This document shows positions 17,541 through 29,953 of a stretch of DNA of 64,000 nt, one piece after another. This stretch comes from Eledone cirrhosa (taxonomy: Eukaryota): the NCBI GenBank assembly GCA_964016885.1, contig OZ024743.1:316076001-316140000 (forward strand). Reading direction: 5' to 3'. The first letter of the stretch is position 1, and each line of letters starts with the position of its first letter. Below the pieces are notes generated by a model, which saw only the letters and a program-made list of their open reading frames with translations, was not told where the DNA came from and ran no database searches. Position numbers and translations under genes: made by a program.

Positions 17541-17626
17541 CGTCGACGATAGGATTCGAACCAACCTATGCGTGGAGACCTCAATGGATTTTTAGTCCAT
17601 CGCCTTAACCACTCGGCCACGACGAC
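17541..17626 (-). pseudogene. tRNA-Ser pseudogene (AAA at anticodon, 4-nt duplication in T arm)
   Basis: gaaccaacctatg insertion; atggatttttagtccat. Confidence 0.8.
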
Positions 17627-17666
17627 ACAATATTACGTTTACATCATATATTAAATATGTTATATA

Positions 17667-18359
17667 TCTAAAACAGAGAATGTCTGTCTGTTTGTCTGTC
17701 TGTCTGACTCCCTAAAACTCGAGAACCACCCAACCGATTGTTTTCAAACTTTACACATGTAATACTTATGGTCCTGTGAGTGTTTTGAGCAAAGAATATT
17801 TCCAATTTTCAATGCACTAGGGACCGCATTAGGCGATTAACCGATCTCTCTCTACAATTCTTAGTCTTACTTTCTAGATAGACACATAGATATAACGTTG
17901 CGCCCTTATAATATCTGTCTGTATGTCTGGCTGTCTGTATGTCTGGCTGTCTGTATTACAACATTATGACGCTTTGTGTGTGTGTGTGTGTGTGTGTGTG
18001 TGTGTATGTGTGTGTGTGTGTGTGTGTGTGTGTGTGTGTGTGTGTGTGTGTGTGTGTGTGTGTGTGTGTGTGTGTGTGTGTGTATAGTATGTAACGTTTA
18101 TCGAAATATTTACTTCTGCGTTCACAGATTGATTATTTTAGTTAAGGGTGAAAGCAGTGATTCTTTGCTTAACTTTTAATCTGTTATTTTAATATATATA
18201 TATATATATAATTATATATTCGTGTACAAAACTTTTGCATACACAATAACAAAATATAAACAAACGTATTTATTTGACGAGGTTCGATAAGGATAAATAT
18301 ATATCAAATATATAAGAACCCTAGAGCATATCCCGAGCAACGCCGAGCCATTCTGTTAG
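17667..18359 (+). mobile_element. Non-autonomous Helitron (family A)
   Basis: 5' TC; 3' hairpin CCCGAGCAACGCCGAG followed by TGTTAG. Inserted at A|T with no TSD; empty paralogous site TTACATA|TATTGACTAAA at 23069 and 24923. Confidence 0.8.
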
Positions 18360-19005
18360 TATTGACTAAAATTATGTTATGTCTGTGCTCTGTATTGTTG
18401 GTATGAAGTGGTAGTTCCCAAGGAAGACATAGGGGCGACAGTGTAACATAGGTCATGTGTTACTTTAAATATGGCGCAGGTTATACTCCCTCCAGGTTTC
18501 AACATAGCAGATCTCTTATAGGGAACGAGAGAGAGAGTGAGTGAGAGTGAGAGGGAAAGAGTGTGAGAAAGCGATATAGAGAAGAAATCTACCTTAGTAC
18601 AGGACTATATTGTTATCTACTTGAACGGATGTTAGGAAAAGTTAACATTGGCGGGATTTGAATATAGAGAGTGAACAGTCCCGAAACTAATGCAGCAAAA
18701 CATTCTATCAGACGTTCTAATGACTCAGCCAACTTACCACCTCTTAACTGTATTTAAGTATTTGATACAATAAAGAATTGGTACGAAAAAATGAAGCATC
18801 TAAGGAAAGGAACCGGTTTCGTTTTGTAGCTGGAGCTAATTTAGTTTACTAGGCGTGGCATGAATATCCCACCATCACTTTCTTAACATTTATATAACTG
18901 TAGCAAAACAAATACGGACGCGGAAGTATATGAACAAACACAAAATCTACTAGTATATTTAATACAGTTTATATAATACAGAAAATTTACTAAAAATGGT
19001 TTAAA

Positions 19006-19087
19006 CGTCGCCGATAGGATTCGAACCTATGCGGGGAAACCCCAATGGATTTCAAGTCCATCGCCTTAACCACTCGGCCACGACGAC
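19006..19087 (-). tRNA. tRNA-Ser(TGA), intact
   Basis: Same body; ATGGA CT TGA AA TCCAT; variable arm GGGGTTTCCCC. Confidence 0.93.
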
Positions 19088-25557: not shown

Positions 25558-25639
25558 CGTCGCCGATAGGATTCGAACCTATGCGGGGGAACCCCAATGG
25601 ATTTCAAGTCCATCGCCTTAACCACTCGGCCACGACGAC
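25558..25639 (-). tRNA. tRNA-Ser(TGA), intact
   Basis: Full cloverleaf, TGA anticodon; paralog of 19006-19087. Confidence 0.93.
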
Positions 25640-25697
25640 ATCTCTAGACAGGCAGCTACAGGATTAGCTTTACATCATATATTAAATATATTACATA

Positions 25698-27080
25698 TCT
25701 CCTTATAATATATAACCAGCAATTTCTCTTTCTGTCTGTCCGACAGTGGAAACACGTGCGCGCGTGGTTGCTATCTCTCTCTCTCTCCAGCTATCCCTCT
25801 CTTTTAGTCTGTCTGTTTCTCTCACTCTCACTTTGTAACACACTAACATTCCTCCCCTCTATCGCTGTGACGAATGGGGAGATGGAGGAGGAGGAGAAGG
25901 AGAGAGTCACTTCGTCACTTCAACTCTGCCTTTCTTTCTCTCCCCTCTCACTCCCTCATTACGTACAGACATTAGGGCGGTGGATTGGCAGAATCTGTAG
26001 AGAGTCGGACACCATGCTTCATAGCATGGAGTTACGTCTCTTTACGGTCTGAGTTCAAATACCGCCGAGGTTAACTTTGCCTTTCATCCTCACGGGATCG
26101 ATAAAATAAAGTACCAGTAATGTACTGGATAATTGGTGGCCTTGGGCCAAAAGTAGAAACAATTATTAGAAATATTGCTTCATTTTTACATATCTAAGCA
26201 TTAGTAAAATAACTAATAATTTCAAAAGTAATTTTTCAATTCCTATTGTTATGAACAGCAAAACATTAATAATAATTTTGTTCTAAGAAATATATATACA
26301 TTTCTGTGTGTGTAATATATATATATACACACACAGAAATATATATATATACACAGAAATATATATACATTTCTGTGTGTGTAATATATATATATATATA
26401 TATATATACTTCAATCTGGCTAAATTTTCTTTTGCAATATATATACAGATGTGTTGGTATCTGTGTTTCATCACATACATATTAGTTTATATATATATAT
26501 ATATATATATATATATATATATATATATATATATATATATATATATATATATATACACACATAGAAATATATGGGCATTTCTCTGTTTGTCTGTCTGTCT
26601 GTCCTTCCCTAAAACTCAAATGTAGGTGCTACAGAAATATTACCTTCCCCTTCCTTTCTCCACTTTGGTACTACCAAGAGAAACACTGTCGCTATAGAAA
26701 CATTACCTTCCCCTCTCCACTGACTTTGGTCACTGAGGCCGAGGGAATCGCTGGTTGCTATAGAGACACCTTGCACAAGCCAGAAGTAACCAGTTCGAGG
26801 CGGTTCTGACTTGACACCATGCCAAGGACCATTTGAAGATATATTTCCATCGTTATATCATAACGTTTATATTTCCGTCACTAATCTCTTTTTCTCCTTT
26901 TTCGTTTTAACATATTTATTTCAAAGATTTCACCGTATAGATAACATATATATTTATACATGCATAAAAGACACACCTAGAGACGGTGAACACGTGGTGC
27001 CGAAAACATTTCTCATCCAAATCTCAACAATATCAGTATATACACTAGATTTGCTAGCCCACCGGTTGGTTTTCTGCTAG
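25698..27080 (+). mobile_element. Non-autonomous Helitron (family C) with internal SINE
   Basis: 5' TCTCCTTATAATATATAA; 3' CCCACCGGTTGGTTTTCTGCTAG; SINE at ~25975-26165. Confidence 0.7.
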
Positions 27081-27956
27081 TCTATATATATAAAACAGAG
27101 AATGTCTGTTTGTCTGTCTGTAAAACTCGAGAACCACCCAACCGATTGTTTTCAAACTTTACACATGTAATACTTATGTTTCAGGGAGTGTTTTGAGTAA
27201 AAAGAATTTCAAATGTTCAATGCCCTAGGGACTGCATTAGGCGATTTAGTGATTTCTTTCTCTCTCTCTTAGTCTTCCTCTTTTTAGATAGATACATAGA
27301 TATTACGTTGCGCCCTTATAATATCTGTATGTATGCCTGGTTGTCTGCATTACATCATTATGACGCGGTGTGTGTGTGTGTGTGTGTGTGTGTGTGTGTG
27401 TGTGTGTGTGTGTGTGTGTGTGTGTGTGTGTGTGTGTGTGTGTGTGTGTGTAGTGTGTGTATATATATACAGTGTGTAACGTTTTTCGAAATATTTACTT
27501 CTGAGTTCACAGATTTATTATTTTAGTTTCAGAAGATCCCGTTAAGAGTGAAAGCAGCGATTCTTTGCTTAAACTTTAATCTGTTATTTTAATATATATA
27601 TATATACATATATATATATATAATTATATATTCGTGTAAAGATATTTTTGCATACACATATAAACAAAAGTATTTATTTCCCGATAAAGTATTGATTTTC
27701 TTCGAACGGAAAAAAACCCTGGTAATGTACGACGAACTTTTTTTATAAACACAAAATGTAGACACCAACCCGAGGCCGAGGTATTCCGTACTTCTCTGTA
27801 CTGTTATTTATATATTCGTGTACAGATATTTTTGCATACACAATAACAAAATATAAACAAACGTATTTACTTCACGAGGCTCGAGAAGGATAAATATATA
27901 TCAAATATATAAGAACCCTAGAGCAAATCCCGAGCAACACCGGGCCATTTTGCTAG
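27081..27956 (+). mobile_element. Non-autonomous Helitron (family A)
   Basis: 5' TCTATATATATAAAACAGAG; 3' CCCGAGCAACACCGGG hairpin then TGCTAG|T. Homologous to 17667-18359. Confidence 0.8.
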
Positions 27957-29953
27957 TATTAAATAAAGTAGTGGTTAATTTTTAAAATACACTCGTTCCA
28001 GGTTCGCGTAGAAATTCCGTATAATTTCAACGATACTGACCTCAAAGCTCGTCGGGAATTACGTGTTTTTCAGATATCTGTGATGTCGAGGGGCGAAATC
28101 TGCAGTTTCCCACCCACGAGACTTTCATTTCTATCTTTTCCACGTGGTCTGTGTGTTTAGGGCGAATCTGAACTTCACAACCATCTGAAATTATACGTTT
28201 TTTTATTAAATGTGTTGAGGGATATAGCACCCGGTGTATTCTTAACACTAACCCTAAACCTAACATTAACTCTAGTCCTAAACCTAACATTAACCCTAAC
28301 CTAACACTAAACCTAACATTAACTCTTGCCATAAAACTAACCCTCGCCAAACAGGTTTCATTTTGAAATAACTTCTATTTTAAACTATATGAATATAAGT
28401 ATGGCTTCGTGTCAAATAAGGAGACGGGTGTTTTTGTAAAACATTACTAGTATTTTCTAGCGTCTTATCTTTGTAATCTTTATAGACTCCTAACACCTGA
28501 TGAAGTCTCTGGGTACACCATCTTGACATACGGTGTGTCATTGACATTTTAAATATGGTGGAGACCATCCTCTCTCCAGGTCTGAATATAGCCCCGATTT
28601 CTTCAAGAGGAGAGAGTGTGGGTGAGAGGTAGAAAGATAGAGATATAGTCGTAGAATTTAACCTAGTTTACCACTGGTACTTTTTATGGGGTTTTTTTTT
28701 TCATCATCATCATCGAAAGAATGGAAGGAAACGTTGGTCGTGGCTTCATTTGAATTCGGAGAGTGCAAAGGCCCTAAATTAATACAGCAAAGTATTATAC
28801 CTGACGTTATAACGACTCAACCTACTTGTCACTGTATGTTCTAACGTTTGTTTTGTTTTGTTTTTTATTTTCTTCCCTCTTCAATATCTTAAAAACAAAA
28901 CAATTTCGACGGGTGTTGAAGTATATGAGTACTACTATGGCTTCGTGTCAAATAAAGAGACTTGCATGTTCTAATATACCTAGTTTATTTGAAATATAGC
29001 TGCAGTAAAAGTAAAAAAACACCAATAAGAAGTGGATAAAACGCCAGAGAGAGGATTTGGAAATATAGGAGGAGACCTCTGCCAATCCACCGCCATAATT
29101 TACATATAGTAATATGTATAATATTATATTACGGGGCACGACTTAGTCAAGCTTGTTTTTATAGGAGTTTTTTTAGTTTTTACCGCAGAAATATTTTACC
29201 TTCATACATGAAGTGGTGGTCGTCACCACTGTCATCGTTTCCCCGCAATGGTGGACATATTATATCTGAAATACTTCAGAGGTGATTGTCATAGCTGTTT
29301 GTGTGTATGTGTTTATATGTGTTGTTGTGTGTGCTCATATGTTGTGTGTGTTTATACATGTGTGTTGTTGTGTGTGTTTATACATGTATGTTGTTGTGTG
29401 TGTGTATATATGTACGTTGTGTGTATTGGACAACTCTCACCAAGGTCAACTTTTCCAACTTGCCACTGTATTAAGATATTTAAAACAGTAAAGAACTGTT
29501 TAGAGAACAGGAACAATATGAGGATCCGGCTTCGTTTTGTAGCTGGAGCGAATTTACTTTATTAGGAGTGGCATAAATATCACACAATTTCATTCTTAAC
29601 ATTTATATAACTAGAAAACCAAATGAGGATGCTAAACTATAGAAACATACACACAAAAGTACTGAAAAATATATTCACTTCTAAAAAAGAAAACTCTTTT
29701 GAAGTTCAGATTCGTACCAAATACACAAAACCACTTGGAAAAAATTGAAATGAAAACTTCATGTGTTGGAAACTTCAAGGGTCGCTCTCCTTACCCCGCA
29801 GATGTCTGAAAAACAAAGGGTTTGGAGGTCAAAATCGTTGATAACACGAAAATGCCGAGGAAAAGATTAAATTTCCACCCGAACCTGGGATGGGTGTTTT
29901 TGTAAATATTTACCACGATTTTATCCAATATATATATATATACACATTAGCAG

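Follow-up and report, generated by a model that had tools for sequence, protein, structure and literature searches.

The window analysed here, a 64,000-nt stretch of the Eledone cirrhosa genome, carries a cluster of tRNA-Ser paralogs interspersed with several non-autonomous Helitrons. An initial sequence-only reading had placed the ends of three Helitron occupants, A (17.7 kb), B (19.1 kb) and C followed by A (25.7 kb), at one and the same homologous nucleotide upstream of these genes, and the coordinates were confirmed. The features are as follows, in window positions.

17540..17626, minus strand, mutated tRNA-Ser copy (called as Phe by ARAGORN) with an 18-bp upstream deletion
17659..18359, plus strand, A17, non-autonomous Helitron of family A, 3' end TTAG followed by T
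19005..19087, minus strand, tRNA-Ser(TGA)
19119..19145, plus strand, AT-rich upstream block common to the tRNA-Ser subfamily, its last base being the A of the AT target
19146..20060, plus strand, B19, non-autonomous Helitron of family B, TC...CTAA followed by T
21194..21271, minus strand, damaged tRNA-Ser copy beside D
21309..22201, minus strand, D21, non-autonomous Helitron of family D with a 38-bp terminal palindrome
23069..23070, plus strand, empty homologous site upstream of tRNA-Ser(AGA) at 22929-23011
24923..24924, plus strand, empty homologous site upstream of a degenerate tRNA-Ser at 24782-24865
25557..25639, minus strand, tRNA-Ser(TGA), paralog of the 19.0-kb gene with flanks 4% and 8% apart
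25698..27080, plus strand, C25, young non-autonomous Helitron of family C at the A27 5' junction, with a SINE piece inside
27081..27956, plus strand, A27, family A Helitron whose subfamily differs from that of A17, carrying a B-type tip and a short B-type patch
42986..42987, plus strand, empty homologous site upstream of an intact tRNA-Ser(AGA) at 42846-42928

B19 begins 58 nt from the tRNA 5' end at 19087, and C25, which is joined directly to A27, 58 nt from the one at 25639. The paralogous sites at 23069/23070 and 24923/24924 are indeed empty, as first read, and a further empty site besides that at 42986/42987 lies at 15306/15307. The deletion described upstream of the 17.5-kb gene was likewise found, leaving the site there at -40. 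Two junctions proved less simple than proposed. A17 had been taken to start at 17667, where a TC is visible, but this is not a clean 5' end: the family tip projects to 17659, about 8 nt have been lost at this junction, and the site is defined by the 3' junction only. Similarly, the 3' end of D does lie 7 nt from the homologous site, but in the paralogous unit the positions next to its two ends are separated by about 270 bp, so D21 came with a flanking deletion. Another deletion, in the paralog at 16.6 kb, begins 2 nt from the site. Overall, seven Helitrons occupy the interval from 17.6 to 36.8 kb (~19 kb), compared with one in 200 kb of random sequence. The stretch was partly present in five sequencing runs; the contigs compared over 19500-20340 came mostly from other B copies, so the lack of an empty allele among them is uninformative.

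The termini and the insertion sites of the five elements are of HLE1 Helitron type. A 5' TC is present in B19, C25, A27 and D21, and the shortened tip of A17 is of its family's type. The 3' ends fit CTRR, with CTAG in A27, C25 and D21, CTAA in B19 and a TTAG variant in A17; genome-wide, the families end in CTAG. Insertion was between A and T without target duplication, as the empty paralogs rejoin with none. No frame longer than 134 aa was found in A17, B19, C25, A27 or D21. Near the 3' ends of B19, A27 and A17 short GC stems can be folded, but these do not exceed shuffles (z of -0.6, -1.7 and +1.0, respectively); the terminal palindrome of D reaches z -6.2. The palindrome of C25 has lost about 12 bp that are intact in other family C copies (z -0.5 for this damaged copy), and because of this damage one end pattern for families C and D matched only C25. 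The genome contains at least four RepHel families, two of them with similar TC-TA-rich starts and hairpin-CTAG ends followed by T. Ten RepHel loci were checked; the ends of none of them were those of A, B, C or D, and no autonomous partner of family C was found among them.

Genome-wide, families A, B and D target the point between an A and a T that is followed by about 12 mostly A/T bases (logo built from 101 3' flanks and 80 5' flanks, with T after 98% of the 101 3' ends). For Helraiser, too, the AT preference is described as greatest 3' of the insertion (PMC4778049). Scored by the motif, the window site ranks among the best 1.2-1.5% of positions in the genome and is close to the median for true targets; the asymmetric motif itself fixes insertion orientation. 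The upstream block offers a median of 8 good target sites in six empty copies; other tRNAs have 0-1 (67 calls in a tRNA-Thr cluster, 12 single calls and 270 array calls). Allowing up to 2 mismatches, the block was found 9 times in this cluster and twice elsewhere, the reversed control giving 16 matches. The best explanation of the shared nucleotide is that it was set by this AT-rich block, duplicated with a small tRNA-Ser subfamily, and not by the tRNA gene. It had been anticipated that a TA-rich motif might account for everything; the site is a typical target, but the motif does not explain its use in full. About 3 in 10 block copies are filled at one nucleotide, far above the plain AT expectation, and motif enrichment of only ~20-50-fold is too little for three insertions, so we rejected the motif as sole cause. 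Equally good sites at -38 and -60 are unused, and exact reuse of -58 therefore needs luck or an unmodelled feature. The end of another repeat had looked like a second hotspot (11 of 26 distinct loci) but was dismissed as background preference: this repeat, which has TA-run ends, is present in at least 32,557 copies, of which the same Helitron families used ~11, or about 3 in 10,000.

Families A and B, with 1,580 and 2,591 ends genome-wide, have about 300 bp in common at the 5' end. A17 and A27 are 7-11% apart, and both have closer relatives among the other copies, which rules out copies of one insertion; at the sequence level this shows them to belong to different subfamilies with different masters, and their proposed independence was right. 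That of B19 and A27 is doubtful, as they have rare terminal variants in common. Only 1 of the 19 best relatives of A27 carries its B-type tip, and 1 of 19 its B-type patch; among 100 listed ends of each family, the base 7 nt from the 3' end common to B19 and A27 was present twice in B and never in A. A27 has none of the private variants of B19. Judged from these variants, B19 and A27 may be one insertion whose occupant was exchanged. The B-like traits of A27 are equally predicted by independent insertion with gene conversion between neighbouring paralogs.

The history that we slightly favor as a whole, exchange of occupants included, begins with what were likely two primary insertions: one was A17, and the other entered the common ancestor of the 19.1/25.7-kb pair. 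At 25.7 kb the occupant would then have changed from B to A, probably by homology-driven replacement, an exchange expected to leave the B-type tip, the patch and the shared terminal base of A27. Two primary insertions of four at the homologous site have P ~0.003, to be multiplied by ~5 equally good site classes per unit. Exchange might alternatively have run through insertion at the resident's 5' end and subsequent loss of the resident, one of two readings described by Du et al. 2008 (PMC2267711). However, at most 2 of 772 family C copies (see below) are without a partner, so clean loss is rare, and A and B sit on each other's 5' ends in only an estimated ~0.6% of residents. For Helraiser, PMC5876387 reports that no empty donor sites were seen.

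It is possible, if doubtful, that A17, B19 and A27 are instead three independent insertions at a true nucleotide hotspot, with a target better than modelled in a cluster that is accessible or weakly selected, the B-like traits of A27 due to later conversion between paralogs and C still secondary. In each of the three, body and 3' end are intact and typical of the family, and their nearest-relative distances (1.4-6.7%) resemble the 4-8% between paralog flanks. The local density of Helitrons, the entry of D into the same block on the other strand and the start of the 16.6-kb deletion so close to the site point the same way, as does the 14-fold preference for open chromatin described for Helraiser (PMC4778049). 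Yet three of five primary insertions at this site would have P ~1e-4 even given the local density, neighbouring sites of equal score remained unused, and the same families have used so few of the TA-rich sites in the other repeat.

Yeast Ty3 and Dictyostelium TRE5 target Pol III genes and are confined to these targets genome-wide. The sequence-only reading had weighed a similar tRNA-directed mechanism against a local sequence preference; the latter is supported, the former is not. We consider it very unlikely that, in the manner of Ty3 and TRE5, Pol III genes guide these Helitrons to a set upstream distance just beyond TFIIIB. The position is exactly -58 at two of the three filled sites, and the insertions have the same orientation at all three, but A17 is at -40 and the orientation is set by the motif. 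Enrichment at non-Ser tRNA genes, the lack of which had been named beforehand as a refutation, was absent in both genome-wide scans for Helitron 5' ends upstream of tRNA-like promoters, which covered at least 2,539 5' ends of three 5'-tip types, with TC toward the gene, at -43 to -73. The scans gave 31 and 8 matches including a single tRNA gene, the window's own. Of the 8 matches from the stricter scan, about 5 precede a tRNA-derived SINE head, which would suit Pol III direction, but a density of ~4 heads per 200 kb per family already predicts 1-2, close to what was seen, and TA-rich flanks are not yet allowed for in this figure. In 20 other stretches, not one of the 78 tRNA calls had a Helitron end within 100 bp upstream, and 100 kb with 270 tRNA calls contained no end, although arrays may purge insertions. 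Conversely, there were no tRNA genes in 30 Helitron loci and none in 157 Helitron loci. Neither a concentration of family copies at Pol III genes nor a fixed position at unrelated tRNA genes was thus observed, and tRNA-directed targeting was rejected; at the family level, the Pol III-directed reading is largely refuted. An Rfam tRNA search gave 16 matches from 63 scored candidates, hence not a genome-wide tRNA total, and a modest enrichment at dispersed tRNA genes may still exist. We hold with high confidence the core of our interpretation, namely that the shared position is not tRNA-directed and reflects a target motif together with self-targeting by family C.

Counting only 3' ends with T next, family C has 772 ends genome-wide, of which 750 continue with TC and 22 with T and another base. 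The TC junctions were read as a sample, and all 22 family C junctions taken without bias are the 5' ends of older, differing Helitrons. Among the 22 non-TC exceptions, 17 are point-mutated Helitron 5' ends and one more probably is. The best family C copies (11/11) and the C-bodied palindrome loci (11/11) abut a Helitron 5' end. In random DNA, TA-rich starts that resemble such ends are four times as frequent as real ones. Nearly all family C copies occupy one target class, at one nucleotide and in one orientation. Family C copies differ by 0.5-0.9% (3' part), compared with 3.0-8.8% between each partner and its nearest other partner, except for one pair 0.5% apart; these divergences indicate that the targets pre-exist C. 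Partners have at least five 5'-end types. What family C targets is thus the 5' end of a resident Helitron and not a tRNA gene, and its insertion at 25.7 kb, first taken as independent, was aimed at the 5' end of the resident A. The terminal palindrome was rejected as the cause of this specificity, since family D has one of the same kind and uses ordinary targets in 19/19 copies, and AT targets genome-wide.

At the 25.7-kb site family C would have arrived last. The likeliest route is a putative RepHel nick at the resident's A-TC start, by which the 5' T of C would be joined to the host A and its 3' CTAG to the resident's T. It is highly improbable that the junctions arose in reverse, with A or B inserting into the 3' end of C between G and T, or that C and its partner move as a composite. 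GT insertion is listed as an alternative by Du et al. 2008 (PMC2267711), and the 0.5% partner pair would fit, but family C is much younger than its partners, free family C ends are almost absent, partner types are diverse, and A and B, when free, are nearly always preceded by A. With targeting of resident starts by C as the preferred reading, we think it rather probable that family C is hyperparasitic: young, with ~770 copies and as its sole target the nicking site at the 5' end of at least five Helitron kinds, it would board at the resident's initiation site, avoid host genes and rebuild the start as a circle-type CTAG-TC junction that could cap or chain residents. With such junctions used in series and residents lost or replaced, one nucleotide would change tenant repeatedly, as at the tRNA-Ser paralogs.

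That all occupants descend from one ancestral insertion, duplicated and rearranged, with the empty paralogs as excisions, is scarcely credible: the same nucleotide and strand, the likeness of A and B and the A17 flanks drawn from different paralogs (left 92%, right 96%) would agree with it, but the flanks switch only ~55 bp past the site, the empty paralogs would call for several clean excisions, A, B, C and D each occur genome-wide, and this descent, named at the outset as a refuter of repeated insertion, is contradicted by the subfamily structure.

Helitrons are usually treated as needing only an AT target, and their head-to-tail junctions are usually read as rolling-circle concatemers. In maize, Helitrons reportedly lie near other Helitrons, as Yang and Bennetzen are said to have found in 2009. 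Family C shows that strict target choice is possible for a Helitron and that many head-to-tail junctions are separate insertions. Same-site insertions of different Helitrons in paralogs are neither independent nor evidence of host-gene targeting. The step in which the enzyme chooses and nicks its target is made directly testable by strict C and loose D, which have similar 3' palindromes and coexist with the at least four RepHel lineages in one genome.

The new part is family C, an apparently strictly self-targeting Helitron; we found none like it in the literature searched. Canonical HLE1 elements such as bat Helraiser are described with the same 5' TC, 3' CTRR and AT insertion without duplication, and with a 3' hairpin, but not as site-specific (PMC4778049, PMC11417382), whereas family C lies almost exclusively at the starts of other Helitrons. 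In maize and bat, head-to-tail pairs have the same CTAG-TC junction of two different elements, and Du et al. 2008 proposed insertion between the host A and the resident 5' T (PMC2267711). However, that account concerns a single case in maize and several in bat (the latter from Pritham and Feschotte, as quoted there), read as tandem repeats; here such junctions number hundreds and are nearly the only target of C. Dada elements repeatedly hit one position of multicopy tRNA genes (PMC8869645), as the window appears to show, but are confined to their targets genome-wide, whereas A, B and D are scattered and show no enrichment at other tRNAs; unlike in Dada, Ty3 or TRE5 targeting, the position is shared here because the flank was duplicated. 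TE dimers formed by double insertion also reuse one site through insertion preference but depend on target duplications, which Helitron insertion does not produce; the main text of that study contains the word "Helitron" 0 times (McGurk and Barbash 2018, PMC5932611). Paramecium Helitrons in telomeric repeats (PMC13085455) are likewise confined to one repeated target, but they belong to a different clade and target a host telomere repeat, not a Helitron start. A functional analogue of family C is IME_oriT of Streptococcus, which integrates at the transfer origin of another element (PMC7563843); it is bacterial, with its own recombination module and relaxase, and the likeness implies no common ancestry.

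The insertion of different Helitrons at one shared nucleotide upstream of tRNA-Ser genes is real, and the coordinates given in the sequence-only reading proved correct on re-checking. The window is part of contig C4 in a genome of 3.0 Gb, and the features concerned are as follows.

12-56 kb: decayed tRNA-Ser gene cluster, running into a 317-bp tRNA-Ser array
19146-20060, plus strand: B19, a family B Helitron, 58 nt upstream of a tRNA-Ser(TGA) gene
25698-27956, plus strand: C25+A27, a family C Helitron joined to a family A Helitron, 58 nt upstream of the paralogous tRNA-Ser(TGA) gene
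21309-22201, minus strand: D21, a family D Helitron ending 7 nt from the homologous site

Between the two tRNA-Ser(TGA) paralogs, the left flanks diverge by 4% and the right flanks by 8%. A17, another family A copy, had been placed at the homologous site of a second unit type, which is unoccupied at 23069 and 24923; its 3' end does lie at the homologous nucleotide, but its 5' junction is not clean, about 8 nt being missing there. The ends of D21 adjoin unit positions about 270 bp apart. The AT-rich target block that contains the shared nucleotide is present in 9 copies at ≤2 mismatches, all within the window's cluster, and its 2 matches elsewhere in the genome are at chance level (a control gave 16). 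In the target-block paralog at 16589-16625, a deletion of about 39 bp begins 2 nt off the insertion site; junction deletions are also found at A17 and D21, which hints at a block that breaks easily or has been nicked. The unit holding A17 (17667-18359) is recombinant: left of the element it shows 92% similarity to the 23.0-kb paralog, right of it 96% similarity to the 24.9-kb paralog, and the changeover lies about 55 bp past the element. A second head-to-tail junction in the window joins the 3' end, at 36306, of a Helitron at 34109-36306 to a D-type 5' end (36307 to about 36800). The homogenised 317-bp tRNA-Ser(AGA) tandem array occupies 56200-64000 and extends for at least 100 kb (L074-L083); it gave 270 ARAGORN calls in the 100 kb beyond the window and no Helitron ends.

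Families A, B, C and D are non-coding, have TC and CTRR termini and are spread genome-wide, with 2,539 exact A/B-type 5' ends, 1,580 A-type, 2,591 B-type and 772 C 3' ends, and 2,254 D candidates at first look. The valuable result is family C, which targets the 5' ends of other Helitrons. Genome-wide, 1,862 A/B-type 5' ends stand in exact head-to-tail junctions, and the C/D-type terminal palindrome stood on the left side in 28 of the 30 junctions that were read. A Helitron 5' end directly follows all 11 of the best other copies of C25, and the same holds for every one of the 11 loci with a C body in a set of 16 chosen solely for the palindrome. Among the C ends genome-wide that are followed by T, 750 have C as the next base and 22 do not; only about 10% of A and B 3' flanks start with TC. 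All 22 exceptions were read: 17 are point-mutated 5' ends, one is probably the 5' end of another family, two, identical to each other, lie inside C sequence, one is a TA run and one an ordinary flank. TA-rich look-alikes exceed true 5' ends 4:1 in random DNA, which argues that C recognises more than a TA run. Family D carries the C-type palindrome yet has ordinary targets in 19 of 19 copies. The 33 distinct C partners are of at least 5 types, and the 30 alignable ones lie 3.0-8.8% from their nearest fellow (one pair, 0.5%), whereas C copies are 0.5-0.9% apart in their 3' part; C copies being so much more alike, the partners appear to predate the insertion of C. C25 is thus an ordinary member of its family and uninformative on tRNA genes.

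Families A and B also land on Helitron 5' ends, weakly, at about 6-7% for A and about 1% for B. TCT follows the 3' end in 138 A ends and in 60 of 2,591 B ends; among 30 such junctions read for each family, 23 (A; 20 by script) and 16 (B; 15 by script) were Helitron 5' ends, the others being recognised by eye. At several loci, a 35-43-bp terminal palindrome has outward Helitron 5' ends on both sides (L217/L218, L225/L270, L226/L227, L236/L237, L140, L229, L235), and at L233, L234 and L263 the same palindrome has inverted C-internal sequence on one side. Both kinds of locus may represent additional families that end in a palindrome and insert at 5' ends, or the palindrome serving as a 3' end on both strands.

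Top-strand nicking by the Helraiser transposase occurs at the 5' TC, and the enzyme both cleaves and forms CTAG-TC junctions (PMC4778049, PMC5876387), so the start of a resident Helitron would be a natural nick site. The 5' T of C would be joined to the host A and its CTAG to the resident's T, which would give exactly the observed structure of C and partner. The strictness of C could stem from a dedicated transposase or from its own 5' sequence. RepHel-coding Helitrons are numerous in the genome (150 scored among 3,704 candidates; Pfam confirmed one) and form at least 4 families of 34-50% mutual identity, 2 of them with similar termini; none of the 10 RepHel loci examined could be matched to A, B, C or D. 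One RepHel-coding family (L305/L306, L321/L322) is joined head to tail to its own 3' end, and in one copy the 3' end adjoins a B-type 5' end. Near-identical RepHel matches recur every ~100-200 kb on C20 and C27 (L293-L302; contigs C19, C20, C27), a spacing that suggests Helitrons within large tandem segmental repeats.

Heterologous head-to-tail Helitron pairs are known as rare cases (PMC2267711), Paramecium Helitrons are confined to telomeric repeats (PMC13085455) and bacterial IME_oriT elements integrate into the transfer origin of another element (PMC7563843). A Helitron family restricted to the 5' ends of other Helitrons was not found in the literature searched, which included PMC13286980, PMC5148889, PMC3789558, PMC5932611, PMC11417382 and PMC13282606 and took in few subscription papers; an earlier description is possible.

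The shared site had been taken to reflect independent events. This is true of A17 and A27, which diverge by 7-11% and are each nearer to other copies (3.1-5.7% for A17, 1.4-6.7% for A27), indicating separate insertions; it does not extend to C25, which targets the 5' end of the resident A27. The bodies of B19 and A27 are family-typical. In A27, however, the tip and a short patch are of B type, and each of these traits is present in only 1 of its 19 best relatives. The two elements also have in common a base, 7 nt short of the 3' end, that 2 of the 100 B ends listed carry and none of the 100 A ends; both lists are biased to young exact matches. The ends of A27 and B19 thereby show exchange or shared ancestry. 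We lean, without confidence, towards replacement, either of B by A via repair on an A template or through insertion of a new element at the resident's 5' end with the resident lost afterwards, a route that Du et al. put forward for two maize Helitrons (PMC2267711). Against replacement, cross-family landings hit fewer than 1% of residents, C almost always keeps its partner, the private variants of B19 are absent from A27, and Helraiser was reported to leave no empty donors (PMC5876387). The same traits would also be expected if the two elements inserted independently and conversion then took place between the paralogs, which are 6.5 kb apart. Contigs from four public sequencing runs did not tell the alleles apart.

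A strong local sequence preference had been offered as one reading of the shared site. The target logo (101 3' flanks and 80 5' flanks) is asymmetric, with A/T-rich sequence, A|T and then about 12 mostly A/T bases, G being nearly absent at positions 8-10; it agrees with the likewise 3'-biased AT preference reported for Helraiser (PMC4778049). The score of the window site ranks with the highest 1.2-1.5% of 400,000 background positions and is close to the median of real targets. Empty target-block copies (n = 6 tested) hold a median of 8 good sites from about -26 to -100, one of which D21 occupies, versus 0-1 at Thr-cluster, single and array tRNA calls. Motif enrichment is about 50-fold, or 22-fold with TA runs excluded from training. 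Local Helitron density is high, with 7 elements at 17.6-36.8 kb against a single one in 200 kb sampled at random, and the 100 kb to each side of the window contained none. Given this density, P is ~0.003 for 2 of 4 primary hits and ~0.0001 for 3 of 5 falling at the homologous site, before multiplication by ~5 equally good site classes per unit and with a noisy top score bin; across a genome scan, two same-site hits could thus pass for chance, three less readily. Sequence preference together with non-independence explains most of the shared site; the motif alone is too weak, and the B/A pair fits more than one history. A TA site in another repeat is reused by the same families in only about 11 of at least 32,557 copies. 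This short repeat has an internal inverted repeat and lies within TA runs (L034-L058, e.g. G000:C1:266827248; L084-L113), and its end has received insertions of at least 7 types of Helitron 5' end.

The alternative proposal, tRNA-directed targeting, is not supported, for want of enrichment at other tRNA genes in either genome scan or at 78 tRNA calls. No tRNA gene was found at the first 30 Helitron 5'-end loci or at 157 further loci. Genome-wide scans for 5' ends facing tRNA-like promoters, in one orientation, gave 31 matches 43-73 nt upstream of a box-A motif, and B19 was the sole tRNA-gene case among the 30 fetched; a stricter scan, which used three tip types and required both boxes, found 8, of which once more only B19 is at a tRNA gene, the remainder being mostly SINE heads at roughly chance frequency. 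For the 78 calls, in 20 stretches picked from 16 Rfam tRNA matches, the first 100 bp upstream were free of Helitron ends, and the closest end lay at -298; they include a diverged tRNA-Thr cluster, and some of the single calls may be SINE-like. Over 50 kb, that cluster (C1, 243.64-243.69 Mb; L415, L417, L430-L432) gave 66 calls, and none of its genes has a Helitron end nearby. Dada transposons target tRNA genes (PMC8869645); a Helitron family aimed at them was not found in the literature searched, which took in few subscription papers. A 1.58-kb tandem array in the 100 kb upstream of the window (L064-L073) gave 55 ARAGORN calls, nearly all tRNA-Ile(AAT) and each beside SINE-like sequence; it may be a satellite of SINE origin and not a set of tRNA genes.

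Several other repeats lie in the window. Degenerate telomere-like hexamer tracts (20348-20432, 28243-28344, 41266-41377) are found in tRNA spacer units and beside satellite, and satellites of 30, 21 and 54 bp occupy 38590-39205, 39227-41264 and 44201-46050. The first 3 kb (1-3000) are strongly G-skewed. A GC-richer 670-bp insert is present in three copies, 76% alike (32322-32994, 51817-52496, 54250-54929), two of them within a 2.43-kb tandem duplication; by impression only, it resembles a decayed LINE fragment.
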